From the NCBI RefSeq assembly GCF_016097555.1, contig NC_054701.1, positions 67,224,366 through 67,288,365 of the forward strand: 64,000 bases of DNA, read 5' to 3'. Each line of letters starts with the position of its first letter. Within the stretch, counting starts at the first letter, position 1. This stretch comes from Gigantopelta aegis (Eukaryota). Under the pieces are notes generated by a model, which saw only the letters and a program-made list of their open reading frames with translations, was not told the DNA's origin and ran no database searches. Positions 6,875 through 63,905 of this stretch are shown one piece after another. The translations under genes were made by a program, and so were the position numbers.

Positions 6875-8438
6875 TACTACTCAAAAGAATTTAAGGGTCA
6901 GACGATATTTTCGACATTATTTTCTGAATGTCAATTATATTAGCTAGACCATAATGTCACGCATGGTATTGTTCCATTTTGACGAAAGTGGGTCTAAGCA
7001 ACCCATAAATGAATTAAAATCAACTGTCATTGACACTGTCGACTAGTTCTAATGGCGAAAACATGCTTACATTTGCACGTAAATTAGGGCGAAAGCGAAA
7101 GGTCTGCTAAGTGCCCATAACTTGCTTTTTCACAAAGCGCTTCATTTGCACGCTTTGCACGTGTATTCCATGTTCCCAATGCTGAATTTCCGTATAATTG
7201 GAGCTTGCGTTCGTGTACGGTGCACACTCCAAATTCGACAATGGTACGACTTCAACTGACTATCGAAGATCGAGGAAGGGCTATTGCTTGGCTTCAGGAT
7301 GGCAATACGTAAAGAAATGTTGCTCTGAGACTTGGTGTCAGTCAGAGTGTCGTTGGCCGACTGTGGCAACGGTACCAAGCAACGAATTCTGTTCGAAATC
7401 GTCCACGTTCGGGAAGACCCCGAAGCACTACAAATAGAGAGGACCGCTACATCACCAATATGGCTCTACGTCAACGCACAACCACTGCACGCCGATTACG
7501 TGACAATCTGCGGACTGCGACTGGAACTCGAGTGTCTGATCAAACCATACGCAATCGTCTGAGAGCCAATAATCTACGCTGCCGTCGCCAGGCTGTTCGA
7601 CCACCACTCCTACCACGTCACTCCTACCACGGCCAGACGTCACTGGTGCACGCTTCATCTGCGGTGGCAACGTGTTCAGTGGGGTCGAGTGATGTTCACT
7701 GACGAGTCCAGGTTTAGTCTCCAGTTCAACGACGGTCGGGTTCGTGTCTACAGACGTCCTGGGGAGCGCTTCGTTGACGTTAACGTTAGACAACGTCACC
7801 GTTTCGGTGGTGGCAGCGTCATGGTGTGGGGCGGCATCTCTATCCACCACAGGACCCCCCTCTATGTGGTGGATGGCAATCTGAATGGAATCCGCTATCT
7901 GAATGAGATTGGCGGCGGGGCAGTTCTGCAGGATGACAATGCCAGACCCCATCGCGCCAGGGTGGTAACGGACTTTCTCAGACAACAAGGTATCGCCAGG
8001 ATGGATTGGCCAGCATATTCGTCTGACTTGGCCCCAATAGAGAACGCCTGGGACGAATTAGGCAGGAGAGTTCGGGATAACCATGCCCCTCCGGCCAACC
8101 TTCATGATCTGGGTCAACTTCTTATGGCAGAGTGGCAGGCCATTCCCCAAGAGTTCTTCAGACAGCATGAGGCAACGATGTGTCGAGTGTATTCGCGCCA
8201 GGGGTGGATTCACACACTATTAAACGAATGTTCTAATGTGTAAAATCCATGTTTGACAACCTTCAACTTTGACAGCATGTCATGTGACTTTCTTGTATAC
8301 AGTGACATTTATTTGTGTTTTTTTGTAAATATGGAACAATAAATAAAAAATTTGGTGTAGTTTACATCATCAATCTAATACACTCTGAAACTTATTTGGT
8401 TATAAATTTTTGACCCTTAAATTCTTTTGAGTAGTATA
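6875..8438 (+). mobile_element. Tc1/mariner-family DNA transposon, about 1.56 kb, non-autonomous because the transposase is a pseudogene
   Basis: Terminal inverted repeats of about 28 bp: TACTACTCAAAAGAATTTAAGGGTCA at 6875-6902, and its reverse complement ending at 8438. Both ends are flanked by TA. An internal Tc1-like transposase ORF is present. Confidence 0.85.
7241..8243 (+). pseudogene. Tc1-like transposase of the DD34E type, interrupted by a premature stop and at least two frameshifts
   Basis: The N-terminal helix-turn-helix part MVRLQLTIEDRGRAIAWLQDGNT ends at a stop at 7310. The frame then shifts (RLWQRYQATNSVRNRPRSGRP..). A second shift is caused by an 11-bp tandem duplication, ctcctaccacg twice, near 7600-7625. 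The C-terminal 184-aa ORF 7689-8243 carries VMFTDESRF, QDDNARPH and SSDLAPIENAW. Confidence 0.85.
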
Positions 8439-10423: not shown

Positions 10424-11100
10424 TTGACACTAAACTGTCAAGGACTTGGGGATTCAGAAAAGAGAAAAGATGTGTTAAACTATTTAAATTGTAAGAACTA
10501 TAACATTTATTGTCTCCAGGATACACATTTTACGACAGCCTTAGAACCGTATATACAGACGCAATGGGGGTATAAATGTTTCTTTAGTTCATATGCTACA
10601 AATGCCAGAAGCGTAGCCGTTATGATTAATATTAATTTCAAATACAGTGTACACAGAATTAAAATGGAGAACTTGGGGAATTTTATTTTAATAGATGTTA
10701 CAATTAAAGGTGAAAGAATTACACTAGCAAATATATATGGACCAAATGATGACAACATAATTTTCTTTCAAAACATATTTGAGTATATTGTACAATTTGG
10801 AAATGATAAATTCATAGTATGCGGAGACTTTAGTATTTAGTATTAAATCAAGACTTTGACATGGACACTAAACACTATTTACATGTTAACCACCCAAAGG
10901 CTCAAAAAGTAGTTGTTGAAAATATGGAAATGTTTGATGTAAAGGATGCATTTAGAGAATTATATCCAAATTTTAGACAATATACTTGGAGAAAAAAGAC
11001 ACCGCCAAAACAAGCCAGATTAGATTTTTCCTTATAACAAATAATTTAATGCCAACTGCAGAGAAAATAATAGTTGAAAATAGCTATCGCTCAGACAACT
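10424..11100 (+). pseudogene. LINE AP-endonuclease domain, broken
   Basis: Stop after ..GDFSI at 10840. Endonuclease-like sequence continues in another frame (DFDMDTKHYLHVNHP..YTWRKK..). Confidence 0.7.
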
Positions 11101-11741: not shown

Positions 11742-12691
11742 ATGGGTGAATTAAACTTTAATAAATTAACTGATGAAGAATCTGAACAATTAGAAGGTGA
11801 ATTAAAATACTCAGAAGTACTAGCATTTCTCAAAACTATGAAAAACGATAAAAGTCCTGGATCTGATGGATTTACTGCAGACTTCTTTAAATTCTTCTGG
11901 ACTGATCTCGGTCACTTTATAGTCAGGTCTATTAACAATAGTTACTCCATTAAGGAAATGTCTAGTGTACAAAAATTTGGTATAATTACATGTATTCCCA
12001 AAGCAAATAAACCTAAAGAATTTCTTAAAACCTTTATTGAACTGTACTTATAAAATGGCATCCGGCTGTATCGCAAACAGAATACAACAGGTATTAGATA
12101 AAATAATAAATAATGATCAAACCGGCTTTATTAAAGGACGATATATTGGAGAAAACATTAGACTCATATACGACATTATGCAGTACACTGATACACAGAA
12201 CATTCCAGGTTTATTGCTATTTGTCGATTTCGAGAAGGCCCTTTGACTCGGTATCGTGGTCATTAATAAATAAAGCACTTGATATTTTTAATTTTAAATC
12301 TTCGATTAAAAATTGGATCAAAACATTGTATAACAACTCTTTATCAAGAATATTGCAAAATGGTTTTCTGTCTGAACCGTTCATGCTAGAAAGGGGGTGT
12401 AGACAAGGGGACCCGTTGTCGCCATATATTTTTATTATTTGTGCTGAAATTTTAGCTATTATTGTTAGAAATAACGAAGCCATTAAAGGTATTGATATAG
12501 ACGGCCAAGAATACCTTATATCGCAATACGCCGATGACACAAGCTTCATTCTTGACGGATCTCCCGAGTCCTTGTACGGTACATGTAAAGTTTTAGATTA
12601 TTACGCACGTATTTCTGGTTTAAAAATAAATGATTTTAAATCAAAAGCCATAAGGATTGGAAGTAAAAAGTTCTCTAACGAGTTTTTTTAA
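11742..12691 (+). pseudogene. LINE reverse transcriptase domain, frameshifted
   Basis: Reverse transcriptase motifs are split over three overlapping ORFs in different frames. Confidence 0.75.
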
Positions 12692-28904: not shown

Positions 28905-29240
28905 GTGGGGCAGGACGTAGCCCAGTGGTAAAGCGTTCACTTGCTGCACAGTCGGTCTAGGATCGATCCCCATCGGTGGACTCATTGGGCTATTTCTTGT
29001 TCCAGCCAGTGCTCCACAACTGGTGTAACAAAGACCGTGGTATGTACTATGATGTCTGTGGGATGGTGCATATAAAATATCCCTTGCTGCTAATTGAAAA
29101 GAGTAGCCTATGAAGTGGTGACAGTGGGTTTCCTCTCTATATATCTCTGTGGTCTTTAATCATATGTCTGACGCCATATAACTGTAAATAAAATGTGTTG
29201 AGTGCGTTGTTAAATAAAACATTTCCTTCCTTCGTTCCCT
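28905..29240 (+). repeat. tRNA-derived SINE, family A, full length, ending 23 nt before MVP exon 2
   Basis: tRNA-like head gggcaggacgtagcccagtggtaaagcg..ggatcgatcccc carries A-box-like and B-box-like blocks. Tail ..gcgttgttaaataaaacatttccttcc. Confidence 0.8.
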
Positions 29241-29262
29241 TAGTTTGTACTATAATTTCCAG

Positions 29263-29582
29263 AGTGGTGTTGGGTCCCGAGAAGATGATCATTGTTCCCC
29301 CGCGCCACTACTGCGTGGTGGAGAACCCCGTGATCCGAAACAAGGACCTGGAGATCGCCTTCAATGAGGCGGGGCAGGTCAGGCTTCACCACGCCGACCA
29401 GGAGATCCGCCTCGCCCAGGAGCCGTTCCCACTGTACCCGGGGGAGGTGCTCAAGCAGCCAGTCACACCCCTTAAAGTCGTCCCGGCCAACTCGGCGCTT
29501 CGGCTGAGGGCGATCCTCGACTTCGAAGACCAGACGGGAGAGAAACGGACAGCAGGCGATGAGTGGTTGTTTGAAGGACCAG
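29263..29582 (+). CDS. MVP: MVP exon 2. Encodes (R)[55 protein letters not shown](G)
   Basis: Acceptor atttccag| at 29261-62. Donor G|gtaaga at 29583. Aligns with human [48 protein letters not shown]. Confidence 0.9.
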
Positions 29583-30694
29583 GTAAGAATAAAATGATGG
29601 ATGTAGTTATAAATCTATCGTTTGTCTCACAGTGAACACCTTTTTTTTCTTCATACTATGGAATTTACTACATACTATGGAATTTACTACAAGTTATTTA
29701 TTTCAGAGCCGTAGCCGATGATGAATTAATCAATGTGCTCCAGTGGTGTCGTTAAACAAAAACAAACATTTTTAAAATTTCTGAGCCAATTGTTTAGGTT
29801 TTTTTGTTATTTCCAGAGCATGTTTACTTTTCTTCTTATGTCAAACCAAACTGAAATTATTTATAAAAAACCCCTTTTTTGTAGGATGGGACCGGACAAT
29901 AGTTGTGCATTATAAACTAGCTCTTATACCATTTAATGGGTTTTTTCTTTTTTTAAATTTAATTTGTTTTTTTTTATATAAATTTTATAAACCCCAGAAA
30001 CAAATTTGGTAGTGTCAGGGTATACCATTTTACATAAAATGGAACAAAACCACCAATTTTACATTAAGACATATTCCAAAATTGACAGTCCTGTCTGTGG
30101 GATGGTGAATATAAAATATCCCTAGCTACTAATGGAAAAATGTTGCAGGTTTCCTCTCTAAGATGGATCCAATCAACTGATTGGGTTTTTTCTCTCATTC
30201 CAGCCAGTGTATCATGACCAGTATATCAATGGCTGTGGTGTGTGCTATCCTGTCTGTGGGATGATGCATATAAAAGGCCCCTTGCTACTAATGGCAAAAT
30301 GTAACATGTTTCCTCTCTAAGACTATGTCAAAATGACCAAATGTTTAATATCTTATAGCTGATGATTAATAAATCAATCTGCTCTAGTGGTGGTGTTAAA
30401 CAAATGTTTTAACTAATGGGTTATACACCTTCCATTCTTACCAGTTCTTATACCCCATTTTATGTTAGGATGTTAAGACTAAAGTCAAAAGCTAGTAGAT
30501 TGTTTTTGTACTAGCACAACTCAGTACCATAAATGTTCTAGTCTGTGCACACTTCACAACAACCATCTCCACACCCAGCAGACTCCCACTGGTCAGGTGA
30601 AATGATTTTACAAGTTCATAATTTCAAAAAAAAATCTGAATTCTCAGAGATGTCTTTTGAAAATATATTAATTTGCTGTATGTTTCTATCACAG

Positions 30695-56574: not shown

Positions 56575-56820
56575 GTCCAACCGAGTCGTGGTTACGCCAT
56601 TGGACTACAGGTTGGTAGGAACAGGGTTCGCAGCCCGTACTGGCTCCAACCCAGAGCGTGTTCTTAAGAGCTCAGTGGGTAGGTGTAAGGCCACTACACC
56701 CTCTTCTTTCTCACTAACCATCTAACAGCTAACCTACTGTCCTGGACAGACAGCCCAGATAGCTGATGTGTATAAGCATGGAAAATAAGTTGAAATAAAA
56801 TGACTCAGTAAGCTACAACA
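56575..56820 (+). repeat. tRNA-derived SINE, family C
   Basis: ggttacgccattggactacaggttggtaggaacagggttcgcagcccgtactggctcc..agcccagatagctgatgtgtataagcatggaaaataagttgaaataaaatga. Confidence 0.6.
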
Positions 56821-57797
56821 TAAGTAATGGTATGTTATTTTATGGCAACTGTCCAATTACTGCTTTTGTTTAAAAGCCTACGAGACAGAGACTCAGAGGG
56901 TAAAAGGGGGGTGGGGGTGGGGGGGGGGGTGGGGGCCCACAACTGCCCACCCACCTCAAGTCCTAGAGCAAGTTTTTGAAATAAATGCAAAAATTGTGGC
57001 TTACATTCGAGCAAAATGTGCTGGCCTGAAACCTTTTCACCACATATTTCCATCATTCTAATTACAATAGTTGTCATCGATGTAAAAGTACCTAATGATT
57101 TGTTTGGAACCATATCTTTAGCTGTTTGGCAGTAGTGCTAATATAAAAATCAGAATAAATGTTATTTAGATGCAGGAATTTTTGTTTAATTCGGCCAAAA
57201 ATCAGTCTGGCCTCCTATGAAAATTAGAGCCCGTATGGCTATACTGGAGAAAACTTGAGTGTTTTCTCTTTTATAGATACATTACCTGTCCTCAAAATTC
57301 ATCCCGCCCGGGCCTCCCCGCTTCCTGTTCTCCGTGCGATGCACTCAGGGAAAAAGAAGGAAGTTACAGTCATGTGACCGGAACTAGAGAGCAGTATGCA
57401 GTAGAAGAATTTAGGCCATCCCATTGGCTGTTGGGATGTTCGGACCAGACCACTTGCGTGGGGGGGAGGTGCACTTGTTTGAGGACAGGTAATGTATCTA
57501 TAAAAGAGAAAACACTCAAGTTTTCTCCATTTCTATAGACATTACCTGTCCTCAAACAAGTGCAGCATTCAACAGATGGTGGTGGGTGCCGAGATCCGTA
57601 GATGCTTGTGATAACTCCCCAACCGGAAAGAGGCTGACTAGTGGAAGAATAAGGCCAACCTTGGTAAGCCCTCATCCTAGGGATGCCCGTCACAGACCAA
57701 TGCAGGTGATGTTAGTAACAACAACCAGAATGGTGGCATCCGTCAGCAGTGGCAGGTACGGCTCCCAGAACAAGGACCAGGAGGCGGCTGCCACATC

Positions 57798-58624
57798 TCA
57801 TGCTGGTTCTGACAGGTGGGAAGTCGTAGCCACCAGGGATGCAGGTGTTAGGTAACCCTCACGTATTGAAGTGTTATTCAACAGAGTCTGTGCAGCAACA
57901 ACTGGACCCAGATGATGGAACCCCTCAACGTCTTCTGTGGAGACATCCCTCAGATAATAGTTGGCGAAGATGGAGTCCGTATCCCAGAAACAACCAGTGA
58001 TAATGTGCTGAATGGATGTGTTGCAGTGCAGGGACATCGTGGCAGCCAAGGCACGGAGTTCATGCGGATTAGAAGCAGACGGAGCAGGTAAACCCTCCTT
58101 CTGATAGGCGGTCAGGATAGAAGACCGGATCCAGGTGGCCACCGTGTTCTTGGTAAGGTCCCTCAACCGACTCTGGTTACAGGAAAGGAAAAGTCTTTTG
58201 CGATGTTGTCGAAAAGATCTGGTCCTCTCGATGTACTGGTGCAGGGCTCTGACAGGGCACAACGCCAAGTCCTCAACGTCCGCCGGACCAACGATAGAGG
58301 AGAGGGCCTGCACAACATACGAACGAGGCGCTTGGTCTGGTAAACTGATTCTTTGCAACAAAGTTCATGAGTAACCCCCAAGTTGACTGCACGCCGATCT
58401 TGGTGAAAACGTACCAAGTCTACATCAAGAGCATGGAGTTCTGAGACACGGGCAGCCGTGGCAAAACCGAGTAAAAACACCGTCTTCCGCATCAAGTCTT
58501 GCAGGGAAGAGGATTCGATCGGCTCATAAGGTGCGGTCGATAACGCTCGTAACACCAGATTCAGGTCCCATCTTGGTGGCCGAAACCGGTGTACTTGATC
58601 ATCAAGGCGAAACCCTTTGATCAT
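57798..58624 (-). pseudogene. Tyrosine recombinase of DIRS type. It is split over two overlapping frames, so it carries a frameshift
   Basis: ORF 58163-58624: ..WDLNLVLRAL..FLLGFATAARVSELHAL... ORF 57798-58361: ..LCPVRALHQYIERT..HELRALAATMS..CFWDTDSIFANYYLRD. These give the R, H-x-x-R and tyrosine motif pattern. Confidence 0.65.
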
Positions 58625-58720
58625 CTTATGGATCTCAGGAATACCCGATAACTTCGTTCCAGTAGCGACATCACGAACAGTAGCGATGACCGAAAACGTA
58701 CCCAGCGATGGTAGACCCCT

Positions 58721-59687
58721 TTAATCGTAAAGTGGTCCGCAGATACAGCCAAAAAACCCAGCAAGACGAAGTATCTGGATCGTCTGAGGTTTGAGGTTTT
58801 GCCGGACACACCCTCGGTGAAAGCAAAGCCATCTGACGTTGTAAGCCACAGTAGTAGATGATCTGTGCGCTTTCAAAATGGCCGCCGTAGACTGTGAAGA
58901 AAAACCTTTCTTTCTCAAACTCTTGGCGATAAAGTCCACGCGTGCAGTTGGAACAACTGCGGACGTGGATGGTATAGTCTTGACGTGGGATGCAGCAACA
59001 GATGATCCCAGTCTGGCAGCGGTAAAGGATGTGGATCGACAAGACGTATTAGATCTGGATACCACATCCTGGATGGCCACATTGGAGCAATGAGTAACAG
59101 GCAACAATGGTACAGCTGAAACCTCTGAAGCACCCTTGGAAGGAGGATTCGTGGAGGAAAAGCGTACGCTTCGGGATCCAGCACCGGAGACACGTAAACC
59201 CTCAGCTGATGGTTGAATCGTGTGGCGAAGAGATCGATGTTTGGTGTCCAAAGTCTGTCGCACACCCATCGAAACGCTTCGGGATGGAGCATCCATTCCG
59301 TCGGCTGTGGAGACGACGGCCGAGACAGTGTGTCGACTAGTACATTGGAAACCCCTGGAATATGGCGAGCCCGAAGTTGCAACGGAATCTCGTCAACCAG
59401 CTTGTAGAGACGATAAGTCAACTGCAGCAGACTGCTGGAGTGGGTTCCGCCCTGACGGTTGATATAAGCCACCGCGGTAGTACTGTCTGTGGCTACCATG
59501 AGAGAGGCGCCTGACAGCATCTCTCGCCAATGAAAGATGACGTAACTGACAACATCTCCAACAGGTTGATGTGTAGATCGGCTTCATCTGGAAACCACAG
59601 CCACCAACAGGGACTGGACTGCAAGGCGACTGGTAACCGGATCAGCAAATCTGCGTTATTGTACTGAATGCATGGATTCAGAAACAA
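58721..59687 (-). pseudogene. DIRS RNase H-like domain (..ATDSTTAVAYINRQGGTHS..ARHIPGVSNVLVDTLSR..NIDLFAT..) plus a degraded reverse transcriptase tail (..YNNADLLIRLP..)
   Basis: Minus ORFs 58915-59520, 58721-59296 and 59493-59687. The frames overlap, which implies frameshifts. Confidence 0.55.
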
Positions 59688-62324
59688 ACTGGATACCGCG
59701 ACCTCTAAGCATAAAATGTTGCGCCGACGTCAAAATTACTCTTGCAATGATACTTCATGAAACAGTAAGAGAGTGATTCAGGAATCAAGACATCGGAAAC
59801 AGCGACCCCGTGATACAGGCAAGAGCCAAGACAGCGTAGCAACTCGCTACGCTACATGCCCGATATACCTGGAAGTGAAGCAACGCAAAACAGCAACCGG
59901 CTAAAATCCACGGCCGTCACACCACCCGGTGCGAAAACAGCAGCAGAGACCATCTAGACAGCATCGGTCACGAACTCTGGCGGTAACAACAGTAAACGTC
60001 AGTGAGTTGATAAGCCGCAATGAACCATAGGAAAACGGTGACGGTAAAAACCCCCGTACCACGTGATGGCAACTGGATAACTTCCGGAACCAGCGGAAGT
60101 AGCGACTGTCTTGCATCGCCACCGGATATAGAGAACGATCTGCCGAATGTCGCTGAACCTTCCTCGAACAAGAGAATATCGGTGCACGGGATCTCAACAC
60201 AAGTGACCGGACCAGTAGACTTTCTTCGTCACCAACCCGGAACGCTTGTAACGTCGACCCCTTCACGGCAAAGAGCCGTATGTAGACCACAGGTCTGCCA
60301 AGATTACCGGCTTGTGCTGAAAGTCAAGAATGGATCGCTTCAGGCAAGTCGGTTGACGATAGTGTGCAATCGTAGTGCACATCGACGTCACGGAAGATAT
60401 AAGGTAGACCAACATCAAAGTCGACGGCTAGAACAAGGCATATCCTCTGGCATCCTGCACATGAGGAGTTATGGTCGCCATGTACAACATGTACGCTGAA
60501 CTGAAGCCATCGACAGGACGTGCCAATCTGTAAGTTCTAGGAAGACGTCTGGTCCCGCCGGAAACAGCGTCATCCAAGGCCGGCGTCACACCGTTGAAGG
60601 ATAGGTTAAAGACGGGATACGTTCGTTGTGACGAATGGGGAACGGCACAAACGAAGTCGAAGTCTACTCAAGTAAACCGACATCGGATCAGTCCTCAAAC
60701 GGAAACCTTCTAGAATGGTGCGAGTGGACTGTGAAGTGACGAAAGCATATACACCGCAGCGAGACAAACAGTCACAGCCATGTGGGTCACTGCGTCCGGA
60801 TCTTCTATAACGGAAGGTGCCGACGCATCATCTGGAAAATCGGTCAGTAACCTGGCACAGGCACTTCGATCCAATGTACTGGCTGCATCGGAAACACGGA
60901 CCGTGGACGGTCCCGTCAGGAGCCGGTGTAACCCTGAACGCCGAATCAGCTGCCGACTGGTGTGGACGGTACGATGTACACGGACCGGCAGGAGCCGGTG
61001 GAACCCTGGACACTGCACCACTTCGATCGATCACGGGACGACGGTACCGAACGGTGAGCCGATGACGCAATTTTCCAATTCGTTACAGGGCTCCGTCTGC
61101 TTGCTGGAACAACGATACGCACGGGCCAGTTACTGGTAGCCGTGTAAACCGACGGGGGCCTGTGGCAGCCAACGATCGAATGCCGATATCTGCCGGTGGA
61201 ACCTCCGTGGCGATCATCGAACCCGGACCCTTCTTGGCTGAAACCGGTGGATGGGCCAGCGGCGGTAGCATATCAGATATGACAGCCAGACAATCCCTCA
61301 GTGACAAGTGGTCCGCCGCATCCAGATCTTCCAGCACCGCATGAACCGATACATCAGAAAGTCACGTAGCACCCGTGAACAGGCCAGTCGCTCTGGTCAT
61401 GGCCCGATGGAGATACCGGAGAACCGGACCGTGGGCGGTCCCGTGTGGATACCAAGGAACGGATGACCACATCGTCGTTGGATGTGGCAAGGACGGCAAC
61501 ATGTCGTAGACAGCCGCCAAGCAATCCCTCATAGTCATATGGTCCGTAGAGTCGGGCTCTTCAATGACAGATGCCGCAGGCGCTTCATCACCAAAGTCTC
61601 GTAGAACTCGAGCACAGGCCAATCGATGTACCGTAATGGAAGCCGCTGGTTAAACCGGACCGTAGATGGTCCCGTCTAGCCCTCGGAGGCCTTGGAAGCC
61701 ACATCAACTGAAGGTTGGCGCTGACGATCTGTGGAACCCGTAGGGAGCCATACAGGTCATGTGGAACGGCTACGGTCCCGGCTCCGATGCGCCGAAGGGG
61801 ACTTCCCCGCCGAAGATCGGTGAGCCTTGGAATCCGTGGAGCGTCTATCTGAATGAGCCGGCTTCTTAGAGGGCTGCGTAGAGACCGCAGGCCTGTCATC
61901 CGAAGTCTTAAGTAACGGTGGAGCTGAAGAAGCCGCACCCCCTGAAGAGGGGACTGGAACCGGACCTGACCCCGAACTCGCCGATTTAGGTAAGGTCGCC
62001 ATTGACGCCATTGTTTCTTCCAGCATGGTCGGTAGAATTGAACGTAACTCTTCCGCCCACGGAGTCAGCAATCGAAGGCGAAGATTCCACCTTCTTGGTC
62101 CTCGAAGATTCCACCTTCTTGGTCCTCGCTGACACCACCTTCAGGTAAGCCGCGAACTCGACATCAGACAAGCCCGCACAAAGGTCGCATCTAGAAGTGA
62201 GGCCACACGAACACGACAACCTGGGTTGCCGCCGGCTAACTTCTTGCAGCGTAACACGCTCGAACTAGTCGCCTGAACATTATCAGATATGATAATAGTA
62301 ATTTTTCAATCTGTGAAAAGAAAG

Positions 62325-62700
62325 AAAAAACCAACCATAACACAAATACAAAGCCGGTAAATAAAGACGCCATTTTGCAAATGGCGTCCGACACGACAAC
62401 CGGCGATATAACAACATTTCATGTAATTAACACTTGGCAAGTCAAGCGAAATACGCGAAAGACATATGAAAGCTAACGAAAGCTAACGAAAATTAAGGTG
62501 AAAAACATTTCACCCAAACACAAAGCCAGTCAACACAGACGCCATTTTGCAAATGGCGTCCGACACGACAACCGGCAATATAAACAACATTTCATGTAAT
62601 TAAACGCTTGGAAGTCAAGTGAAATACGCGAAAAGAACATACGAAAGCTAATGAAAACGAAGGTGAAAAACATTTCACCCAAACACTAATACAAAACCAA
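62325..62700. repeat. Tandem duplication of about 190 bp, 2 copies, inside the DIRS-like element. Each copy has a 10-bp inverted repeat hairpin, gacgccattt-tgc-aaatggcgtc
   Basis: Palindromes at 62366-62388 and 62538-62560. The surrounding ..ccggtaaataaagacgccattttgcaaatggcgtccgacacgacaaccggcgatataacaacatttcatgtaatta.. is duplicated. Confidence 0.85.
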
Positions 62701-63029
62701 AGGTCTTATAAAAGTTGACTCCAAACAGAGCCAAGCAAAAGGACGTCCAGACCCTTTAGCGAAGAGAAAAAGAAGGAAGTTACAGTCATGTGACCGGAAC
62801 TAGAGAGCAGTATGCAGTAGAAGAATTTAGGCCATCCCATTGGCTGTTGGGATGTTCGGACCAGACCACTTGCATGGGGGGGAGGTGCACTTGTTTGAGG
62901 ACAGGTAATGTCTATAGAAATTTTGTTTGTGTACCAGTGATTGCAAGGCCTACAAGGCCCAACAAATTTTTGCATCTCCTAAGACAGTTATGTCCCTTGA
63001 ATAAATTGCTATGCCAGTCAAACTTGGTG

Positions 63030-63300
63030 GCCGGTGGCGCAGTGGTTAAGCTATCGGGCATAACGCTGTTAGGTACAGTGTTCGCAGCCCAGCACCGGCT
63101 CCACCCAGAGTGAGTTTTAACGACTCAATGGGTAGGTGTAAGACCACTACACCCTCTCATCTCTCACTAATCACTAACAATTGACAACTAACCCACTGGC
63201 CTGGACAGACAGCCCAGATAGCTGAGATGTGTGCCCAGGACAGCATGCTTGAACCTTAATTGGATATAAGCGTGGAAATAAGTTGAAATAAAAATGAAAT
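63030..63300 (+). repeat. tRNA-derived SINE, family C, full length
   Basis: Head ggtggccggtggcgcagtggttaagc..gttcgcagccc. Tail ..cttgaaccttaattggatataagcgtggaaataagttgaaataaaaatgaaatga. Confidence 0.65.
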
Positions 63301-63559
63301 GATCAGACCATAGCTCTGGGTGAATCCCCATGAAAATCAAATGTGGTCTGTAACAGTAAAGCTATAAACAATAAAGCTAAACACAAAATTTCAGCTCAGT
63401 ATCTTGAGGCATTGCGGAAACAACAGTCTGGAAAACTAAGTGGGACAGACAGACAGACAGACAGACAGACAGAAGGACGGAGACAAAACCTCTAGTCCCT
63501 CCGGTTGGGCCGGTAGGGACTGATGAGAACCAAAAGAGTGTGACTGATAAGGATACCAG

Positions 63560-63905
63560 TAAGTGTGTCATTGCTTCACTGCATTAAGTGTGTCGTTGCT
63601 TCACTACAGTAAGTGTGTCGTTGCTTCACTACAGTAAGTGTGTCGTTGCCTCACTGCAGTAAGTGTGTCGTTGCTTCACTGCAGTAAGTGTGTCGTTGCC
63701 TCACTGTAGTAAGTGTGTCGTTGCCTCACTGCAGTAAGTGTGTCGTTGCCTCACTGTAGTAAGTGTGTCGTTGCCTCACTGCAGTAAGTATGTCGTTGCC
63801 TCACTGCAGTGTGTCATTGTCTCATTGCAGTAAGTGTGTCATTGCTTTGCTGCAATAAGTGTGTCATTGCCTCACTGTATTAAGTGTGTCGTTGCTTCAC
63901 TGCTG
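63560..63905. repeat. Tandem repeat: about 11 copies of a 31-bp unit, gtaagtgtgtcgttgc(c/t)tcact(g/a)cag
   Basis: Read directly. Preceded by (CAGA)n at 63436-63470. Confidence 0.9.

Follow-up and report, generated by a model that had tools for sequence, protein, structure and literature searches.

How a tyrosine-recombinase retrotransposon can end in terminal direct repeats and still carry an internal region complementary to its own ends is the question raised by a locus in the genome of Gigantopelta aegis. The window analysed here is a stretch of 64,000 nucleotides of this genome (RefSeq assembly GCF_016097555.1, contig NC_054701.1, positions 67,224,366 to 67,288,365 of the forward strand); all coordinates given without a prefix are those of the window. 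On its minus strand, at 57245-62921, lies an element of 5,677 bp. We consider it likely that this is one copy of a defective DIRS1-like retrotransposon, i.e. an element of the type that has inverted terminal repeats (ITRs) together with an internal complementary region (ICR) and encodes a tyrosine recombinase (YR), that its right end was inverted, and that it was made in trans from a defective template. The copy is dead and belongs to the DIRS1-like superfamily, which is well described in molluscs (Lottia, Aplysia); its clade also occurs in Patella and Haliotis. The element type is known and this member of it is ordinary, with the flipped right end as a modest structural curiosity.

The window is AT-rich (G+C ~38%), and G+C reaches 51-55% within ~57.2-62.9 kb. 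This G+C-rich stretch holds, on the minus strand, remnants of gag, a partial RNase H, an 'MT-like' module and the YR, and the strand is riddled with stop codons and frameshifts in the list of open reading frames (ORFs) and their translations. An earlier note on this DNA had described a degraded minus-strand retroelement with a tyrosine recombinase and a gene order typical of DIRS or Ngaro-type elements rather than of LTR integrase elements. We agree that it is a degraded member of the DIRS order with a tyrosine recombinase and no DDE integrase, and correct the limits from 57352-62912 to 57245-62921.

Terminal repeats and the internal complementary region

The ends of the element and the internal region between the YR remnant and the right end consist of the following parts.

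62763-62921, minus strand: left terminus (left ITR, lITR), with direct repeat D1 and inverted repeat I2; the sense strand of the element starts at 62921 with ATTTCTATAGACATTACC
57529-57564, minus strand: left internal complementary region (lICR), complementary at 36/36 nt to the first 36 nt of the element, ending in AAT
57478-57529, minus strand: right internal complementary region (rICR), complementary at 52/52 nt to the right terminus and right extension
57297-57477, minus strand: segment of 181 bp, read here as inverted, made of 131 nt of ITR interior (57347-57477) and a 50-nt spacer (57297-57346)
57245-57296, minus strand: right terminus, made of the outer 27 nt of the right ITR (rITR; 57270-57296) and a 25-nt right extension (57245-57269)

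Direct repeats of about 150 bp had been noticed at the two ends, and a repeat search placed them at 57347-57504 (A2) and 62763-62920 (A1), 158 nt long and 97% identical (blastn E 3e-72). Beyond the first 10 nt, A1 and A2 differ by one mismatch in 146 nt (99.3% identical). The first 10 nt correspond to the 'divergent ITR' portion, in which either end agrees with the ICR that belongs to it. A short inverted repeat had also been described at the left end of the locus (57261-57300 against 57487-57530). It proved to be longer, namely 57245-57296 against 57478-57529, which are complementary at 100% of 52 nt. A second inverted repeat had been missed: 57529-57564 and 62886-62921 are 100% complementary over 36 nt. 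An 18-mer core, TTTGAGGACAGGTAATGT, occurs four times (expected: 0.01), and all occurrences lie in the two ITR ends and the ICRs. The count of this core and the long perfect repeats show that the repeats are real and far beyond chance. No second copy of the family was found elsewhere in the window. A metagenome scan for the 18-mer core gave four matches, two of them with any alignment, extending no further than 27-35 nt.

The lICR (sense sequence TGCACTTGTTTGAGGACAGGTAATGTCTATAGAAAT, 57564-57529) and the rICR abut at 57529. The predicted circle junction of the element is the reverse complement of this internal region at 87/87 nt. When the junction was aligned in direct orientation, 97/113 positions matched overall, and the ~16 mismatches and gaps all fell into the junction core, at the hairpin loop and at the terminal 12 nt, which exist in two variants. 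The uninterrupted complementary match of 87/87 nt follows the ICR/ITR logic by which DIRS1-like elements are defined. At its start the element reads ATT, which is the commonest start in the survey by Piednoel et al. (Table 3; PMC3266345), and the circular junction reads AAT, complementary to the start trinucleotide.

A protein search with the stitched RNase H-to-recombinase translation of the window copy found 574 relatives. The top matches, P0001 (from an ENA assembly) and P0002 (NCBI GCA_006240915.1), were 61-63% identical. Haliotis asinina, H. cracherodii and Patella vulgata were the sources of the named matches, which makes a gastropod host most likely. The genomic loci of seven relatives were retrieved, and both ends were resolved in four: L003 (P. 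vulgata OW026352.2, 6,046 bp), L004 (H. cracherodii JAJLRC010000006.1, 6,321 bp), and L005 and L010 (both H. asinina). The contigs L001 and L002, which hold the closest relatives, end at or before the ICR, and their termini lie outside the end comparison. An apparent second blastn match of the window to L001 (1649-3308) belongs to L002 and does not mark an internal duplication. All four end-resolved relatives have the canonical layout lITR ... lICR-rICR-spacer-inverted rITR-right extension. Their lICR measures 35-46 nt and their rICR 50-58 nt, with an overlap of 3-8 nt, and the spacer 56-80 nt; the right ITR is inverted, 141-186 nt long and 98.6-100% identical to the left one. A further locus, L012, fits the canonical layout, without a resolved lICR. 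The terminal parts follow one another in the window copy as they do in the relatives L001, L003-L005 and L010; also shared are an E-box-like motif close to where the left ITR ends on its inner side, and a hairpin in the right extension.

The ends also resemble those of described elements from molluscs. LgDIRS1-3 of Lottia gigantea and AcaDIRS1-2 of Aplysia californica (Piednoel et al. 2011; PMC3266345) share the ATT start and the AAT junction with the window copy. They likewise have an lICR of ~36-46 nt, a longer rICR and a core of at least 10 nt common to both ITRs and both ICRs (18 nt in the window), measure ~5-6 kb and, in intact members, encode gag, reverse transcriptase (RT)-RNase H-MT and YR. 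A right extension is also common to them, of 25 nt in the window copy and 46-49 nt in the Lottia and Aplysia elements. The window copy differs from them in lacking the RT and in the inverted inner part of its right ITR. DIRS-1 of Dictyostelium (Cappello et al. 1985; Malicki et al. 2020, PMC7192593) has ITRs and, as in the window copy, a YR and an ICR that is an exact complement of the two extremities. However, its host is distant and its conserved ITRs are much longer (~300 bp). The DIRS-1 mechanism is carried over to the window copy by inference only.

Some smaller sequence features of the ends were noted alongside. The inner end of the left ITR (62763-62850, copied at 57347-57434) holds a CCAAT box and a TTCCGGTCACATGA...ACTTCC block, and TTCCGGTCAC(A/G)TGA...ACTTCC is common to this inner end and to L001:300-345. 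A CACGTG motif is found in the ITRs of L003, L004 and L010. These motifs look like promoter elements, and the flipped second set faces outward into the flank. The right extension (57245-57269) can form a hairpin with an 8-bp stem (z-score -4.3). Such a hairpin recurs in relatives (L003:9183-9215, L005:8644-8676) without sequence conservation, and recalls the hairpin-priming idea for DIRS-1 cited in PMC7192593.

The flipped right end and its possible origins

At the right end of the window copy only the outer 27 nt are inverted relative to the left end (I4), and the remaining 131 nt are direct. The difference from the relatives lies entirely in the interval between the two 52-nt arms. In the window copy, this interval begins with the ITR interior (57347-57477), which repeats the left terminus in direct orientation, and continues with 50 nt; the relatives have the spacer first and then the inverted ITR interior. 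Flipping 57297-57477 restores the canonical order exactly: the spacer then measures 50 nt and the ITR 158 nt. In the window copy the spacer (57297-57346) is thus reversed as well, and its motif CCCGCC...CCTCCCC(A/G)CTT, with the CCTCCCCGCTT part, matches the relatives only when the 50 nt are flipped. One inversion between the rICR and the right end therefore yields the 158-nt direct repeat of the left end, and the terminal direct repeats are, judged from the sequence, best read as a secondary inversion product.

The inversion may have been caused by homologous recombination or template switching between the 52-bp arms. It may also have resulted from an error in ICR-guided restoration of the ends, or from site-specific inversion by a DIRS recombinase. 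The recombinase is a candidate because the ICR represents an inverted copy of the full circle junction and the right end a half-site that faces the other way.

The same arrangement would be seen if the copy were canonical and the assembler had mis-oriented the 181-bp segment. The arms are 100% identical over 52 nt and offer equivalent paths for short k-mers, and every other relative examined is canonical. However, a 52-bp repeat is spanned by ordinary reads and resolved by most assemblers, and the region is otherwise free of signs of a mis-join. We therefore consider an assembly artefact unlikely.

The layout bears on a broader question. What defines split-direct-repeat elements is that A1 lies at the 5' end, that B1-A2-B2 lie at the 3' end, and that the copies are identical in direct orientation (PMC9210276, PMC4157794). 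Because the DIRS1 circle junction is nearly palindromic, a single inversion yields a formal A1 ... B1-A2-B2 arrangement from an ITR/ICR element. Szitenberg et al. 2014 (PMC4157794) argued that one architecture could change into the other only through intermediate forms, and that such forms are not observed. The window copy looks like such an intermediate, but a single dead copy proves nothing on viability. One inversion between ICR and right end is enough to turn ITRs into terminal direct repeats, and this bears on how the architectures may interconvert. A further-reaching proposal, which we regard as quite doubtful, is that the window copy represents the 'intermediate form' produced by this one inversion, that the flipped form may be copied, and that the recombinase of the element itself may catalyse the flip, with the ICR as an inverted attachment site.

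Very unlikely, in our judgement, is a heritable and transposition-competent variant, i.e. a living intermediate between the ITR/ICR and the split-direct-repeat architecture. The window layout does formally provide A1/A2 (158 nt) and B1/B2 as direct repeats (24/27 nt, 89%). Moreover, the 99.3% identity of A1 and A2 around a broken interior points to a young copy of a defective template, and both ICRs are still perfect. Against this, the flipped layout is known from a single copy, with no other in the window and none in the metagenome scan; B1 and B2 do not match fully in direct orientation, whereas the matches in complementary orientation are perfect; and all relatives are canonical.

The earlier note had placed the element in the split-direct-repeat subgroup, which would make it a true element of the PAT-like or Ngaro type. 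The ~150 bp terminal direct repeats and the order gag - RNase H - YR agree with this view; the window layout is formally A1 ... B1-A2-B2, and PAT-like and Ngaro elements also have a gene order ending with the YR (PMC4157794, PMC9210276). Unlike in those elements, however, B in the window copy is the reverse complement of the start of A, and the internal copy of the junction is a perfect complement and not a direct copy. The closest end-resolved relatives have the ITR/ICR architecture (4/4), and one inversion accounts for the direct repeats. The window copy also keeps a module downstream of RNase H at 59301-58918. In the DIRS literature this post-RNase H module of DIRS1-like and PAT elements is named 'MT-like' and considered a putative methyltransferase. 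Ngaro elements lack it, and a Ngaro placement was rejected on this ground. We conclude that split-direct-repeat membership is highly improbable, and advise annotation of the copy as DIRS1-like and RT-deleted, not as Ngaro or PAT.

To a composite of one full copy and a solo left-terminus fragment of a second copy at or near the right end we give almost no credence: DIRS elements often insert into one another (PMC7192593) and the A2 block, with perfect inverted repeats on either side, resembles a small insertion, but A2 runs seamlessly from the rICR, excision of 57245-57529 leaves the main element without a right terminus, the 50-nt spacer matches the canonical spacers reversed, and several coincident breakpoints would be needed where an inversion needs one.

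Age and mobilisation of the copy

Under the DIRS-1 model, a single template serves for the restoration of the two terminal repeats, so that the divergence between them dates the insertion. According to this model, which was established for Dictyostelium DIRS-1, a sub-genomic transcript would be reverse transcribed, and its missing ends would be restored and linked to each other through annealing to the ICR, so that a circle forms. This circle would then be inserted by the tyrosine recombinase at a matching trinucleotide, here ATT, without target-site duplication. The RT of DIRS-1 acts in trans, and the ICR is indispensable for retrotransposition (Malicki et al., PMC7192593).

The interior of the window copy is heavily damaged: gag is split into at least 8 ORF pieces, the RT is lost, and the YR gene has at least one stop codon and two frameshifts. 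A repeat divergence of ~0.7% cannot explain such damage, suggesting that the template was already defective when it was copied in trans. We conclude that the copy was probably made from an already defective template by proteins supplied in trans. Termini that look young around a broken, RT-less interior thus point to mobilisation in trans of non-autonomous DIRS derivatives in animals; the prior experimental support for such mobilisation is the trans-acting RT in Dictyostelium only. The element shows no depletion of CpG, with an observed/expected ratio of 0.95 against 0.62 in the rest of the window.

Several points weigh against a DIRS1-like copy with an inverted right end that was made in trans. 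In addition to the small chance, considered above, that the segment between the 52-bp perfect inverted repeats was mis-oriented during assembly, the trinucleotide at the right end reads AGT and not ATT. The evidence from spacer orientation is statistically modest, with total local alignment scores of 58 (flipped) and 31 (unflipped) and shuffle p values of 0.02-0.17 per relative. The close identity of the terminal repeats may reflect gene conversion instead of youth. The superfamily placement is based on the terminal logic and on relatives with canonical DIRS1-like termini, and the MT-like module has no methyltransferase similarity in Pfam or among solved structures. Finally, the analysis covers a single copy of the family, which allows neither dating of the inversion nor its assignment to the locus or the lineage.

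Coding remnants, relatives and surroundings

Upstream of the internal region, the element contains the following parts, listed in sense order.

62343-62686, minus strand: 5' untranslated region with a 172-nt unit present twice (repeat search)
60281-62237, minus strand: gag-like (ORF1) remnants in at least 8 ORF pieces (tblastn with ORF1 of L001, ORF list, tandem repeats)
59737-60280, minus strand: unassigned filler of 544 nt in place of the gag end and the whole RT domain (similarity searches)
59320-59736, minus strand: RT-RNase H linker and partial RNase H (alignment with five pol sequences; Pfam RT_RNaseH on the matching part of L001)
58918-59301, minus strand: post-RNase H 'MT-like' module, TEW...DLFAT...AFPP...APxWPxRxW...LHAW (alignment)
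57798-58936, minus strand: tyrosine recombinase remnant with at least one stop codon and two frameshifts (tblastn, hidden Markov model (HMM), alignment)

Pfam searches with the raw ORF pieces yielded almost nothing, and stitched translations and homologues were needed to assign these parts. The intact relative L001 (the contig of P0001, ENA k141_684947; 6,314 nt) served as the main guide. Its ORF1 codes for a gag-like product of 700 aa with a Cys-rich N-terminus, its ORF2 (pol) matches Pfam RVT_1 (E 7e-22) and RT_RNaseH (E 1.6e-5), and the C-terminus of its ORF3 matches Phage_integrase and SAM-like domains.

The recombinase remnant comprises an N-terminal SAM-like part and a catalytic part. 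ORF3 of L001 maps to 59491-57861 over two frames (E 2e-158), and the recombinase was assigned to 58936-57861. The R, HxxR and Y motifs reported previously were recovered: the R, K, HxxR, W and Y columns are invariant among 14 sequences, and all are retained in the window copy (R at 58462-58427, HELR at 58070-58038, W at 57995-57978 and the Y of FANYYL at 57968-57945). Pfam Phage_integrase matched 12 of the 14 sequences of the family, with a best E of 3.5e-7; for the window copy, E was 1.8e-4, under the gathering cut-off. When a YR profile was compared with solved structures, all 17 matches were to Cre or Tre; these were weak (E 0.02 or higher), and the alignments cover the catalytic Arg and the HxxR...W...Y segment. 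The L001 YR as a single sequence matched no solved structure, and the profile alone reached Cre. Taken together, the Phage_integrase and Cre/Tre matches identify a tyrosine recombinase, and no rve or DDE match that would indicate an integrase in its place was obtained.

The linker, RNase H and downstream module (59736-58921) are 65% identical to L001 pol (tblastn, E 3e-89), with RNase H and the downstream module at 59553-58921. The RNase H lacks a block of ~50 aa that carries the first catalytic Asp, and retains the E of HINLLEM, the D of ATDSTT and the D of VLVDTLSR. The segment TDSTTAVAYINRQGG, previously singled out as RNase H-like, turned out to be a conserved RNase H strand in the multiple alignment. 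The MT-like module is a homologous module of ~145 aa that aligns with six relatives and has a 15-aa deletion in the window copy. RNase H and the MT-like module together are 47-63% identical to those of the relatives, and the YR 42-65% at the amino-acid level.

The segments had originally been given as gag, RT, RNase H and YR, in that order; gag, RNase H and YR were borne out, whereas an RT domain was undetectable. The motif YNNADLLI (59663-59640), which had been taken for the YxDD-type box of an RT, aligns in the RT-RNase H linker. Its counterparts are FDQPHLLI in L001 and SLELQDLI in L003, ~90 residues past the YIDD/YLDD box in the multiple alignment. Residues 1-389 of L001 pol, which include the RVT_1 part, had no match in the window. 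Similarly, with a 980-position HMM built from 14 pol or pol-YR sequences and run with all filters off, only positions 397-978 matched, both in the element and in the whole 64-kb window. No RT remnant was found in 60750-59600 by sensitive tblastn, by the custom pol HMM or by Pfam RVT_1 on three frames. The filler (queried as 59700-60320) had no similarity to L001-L005 by blastn or tblastx, nor to the whole window by blastn. RT and RNase H are both present in L001, and from these sequence comparisons the window copy is to be regarded as an RT-deleted derivative.

Gag remnants were confirmed by tblastn with ORF1 of L001, which matched 62237-62019 (E 6e-5) and 60634-60281 (E 1e-10), and a Cys-rich motif of the gag N-terminus lies at 62189-62133. 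Repeats are frequent in this part. Three diverged copies of one gag block (the region of residues 383-426 of L001 ORF1) lie at 60749-61625, a 24-nt tandem repeat lies at 62079-62142, and in L001 gag a unit of 18 nt forms a tandem array (L001:1099-1482). Repeat expansion thus seems to be favoured in the N-terminal half of gag.

The intact relatives code for gag, for a pol protein that comprises RT, RNase H and the MT-like module, and for a YR. In L001 and L003-L005 the pol and YR ORFs are intact and overlapping, unlike in the window copy, which is broken, lacks the RT and has the 181-bp segment reversed; in L010 the pol match is spread over three frames. The YR frame, which is the pol frame minus 1, is free of stop codons over a pol overlap of 1.94-2.01 kb (L001:2921-4919, L003:5446-7456, L004:4792-6733, L005:5097-7038), and the third frame of the same overlaps has 32-57 stops. 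A survey in 2011 (PMC3266345) reported long pol/YR overlaps in half of the DIRS1-like elements and none in molluscs. The doubly open overlap of ~2 kb kept by these closest intact gastropod relatives is new for molluscs relative to that survey.

In the 5' untranslated region, the two 172-nt units (62343-62686) form a tandem pair with 86% identity, and each contains the palindrome GACGCCATTTTGCAAATGGCGTC. A YY1-like GCCATnTT motif occurs in the 5' untranslated regions of four of six elements. Two copies of a repeat of ~200 bp resembling a short interspersed element (SINE), ~83% identical and in the same orientation, flank the element at 56590-56790 and 63030-63240; scans of the flanks gave no tRNA or Rfam match for them. 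Just beyond the element are a (GACA)7 tract at 63444-63473 and a minisatellite at 63557-63903 with 14 copies of a 25-nt unit (consensus CAGTAAGTGTGTCGTTGCCTCACTG). Elsewhere in the window, ORF translations at 7689-8243, 10424-10840, 12113-12691 and 29195-29635 (plus strand), inspected by eye, appear to include a Tc1/mariner-like transposase remnant, an endonuclease and RT (QYADD box) of a long interspersed element (LINE), and a putative exon like that of major vault protein.

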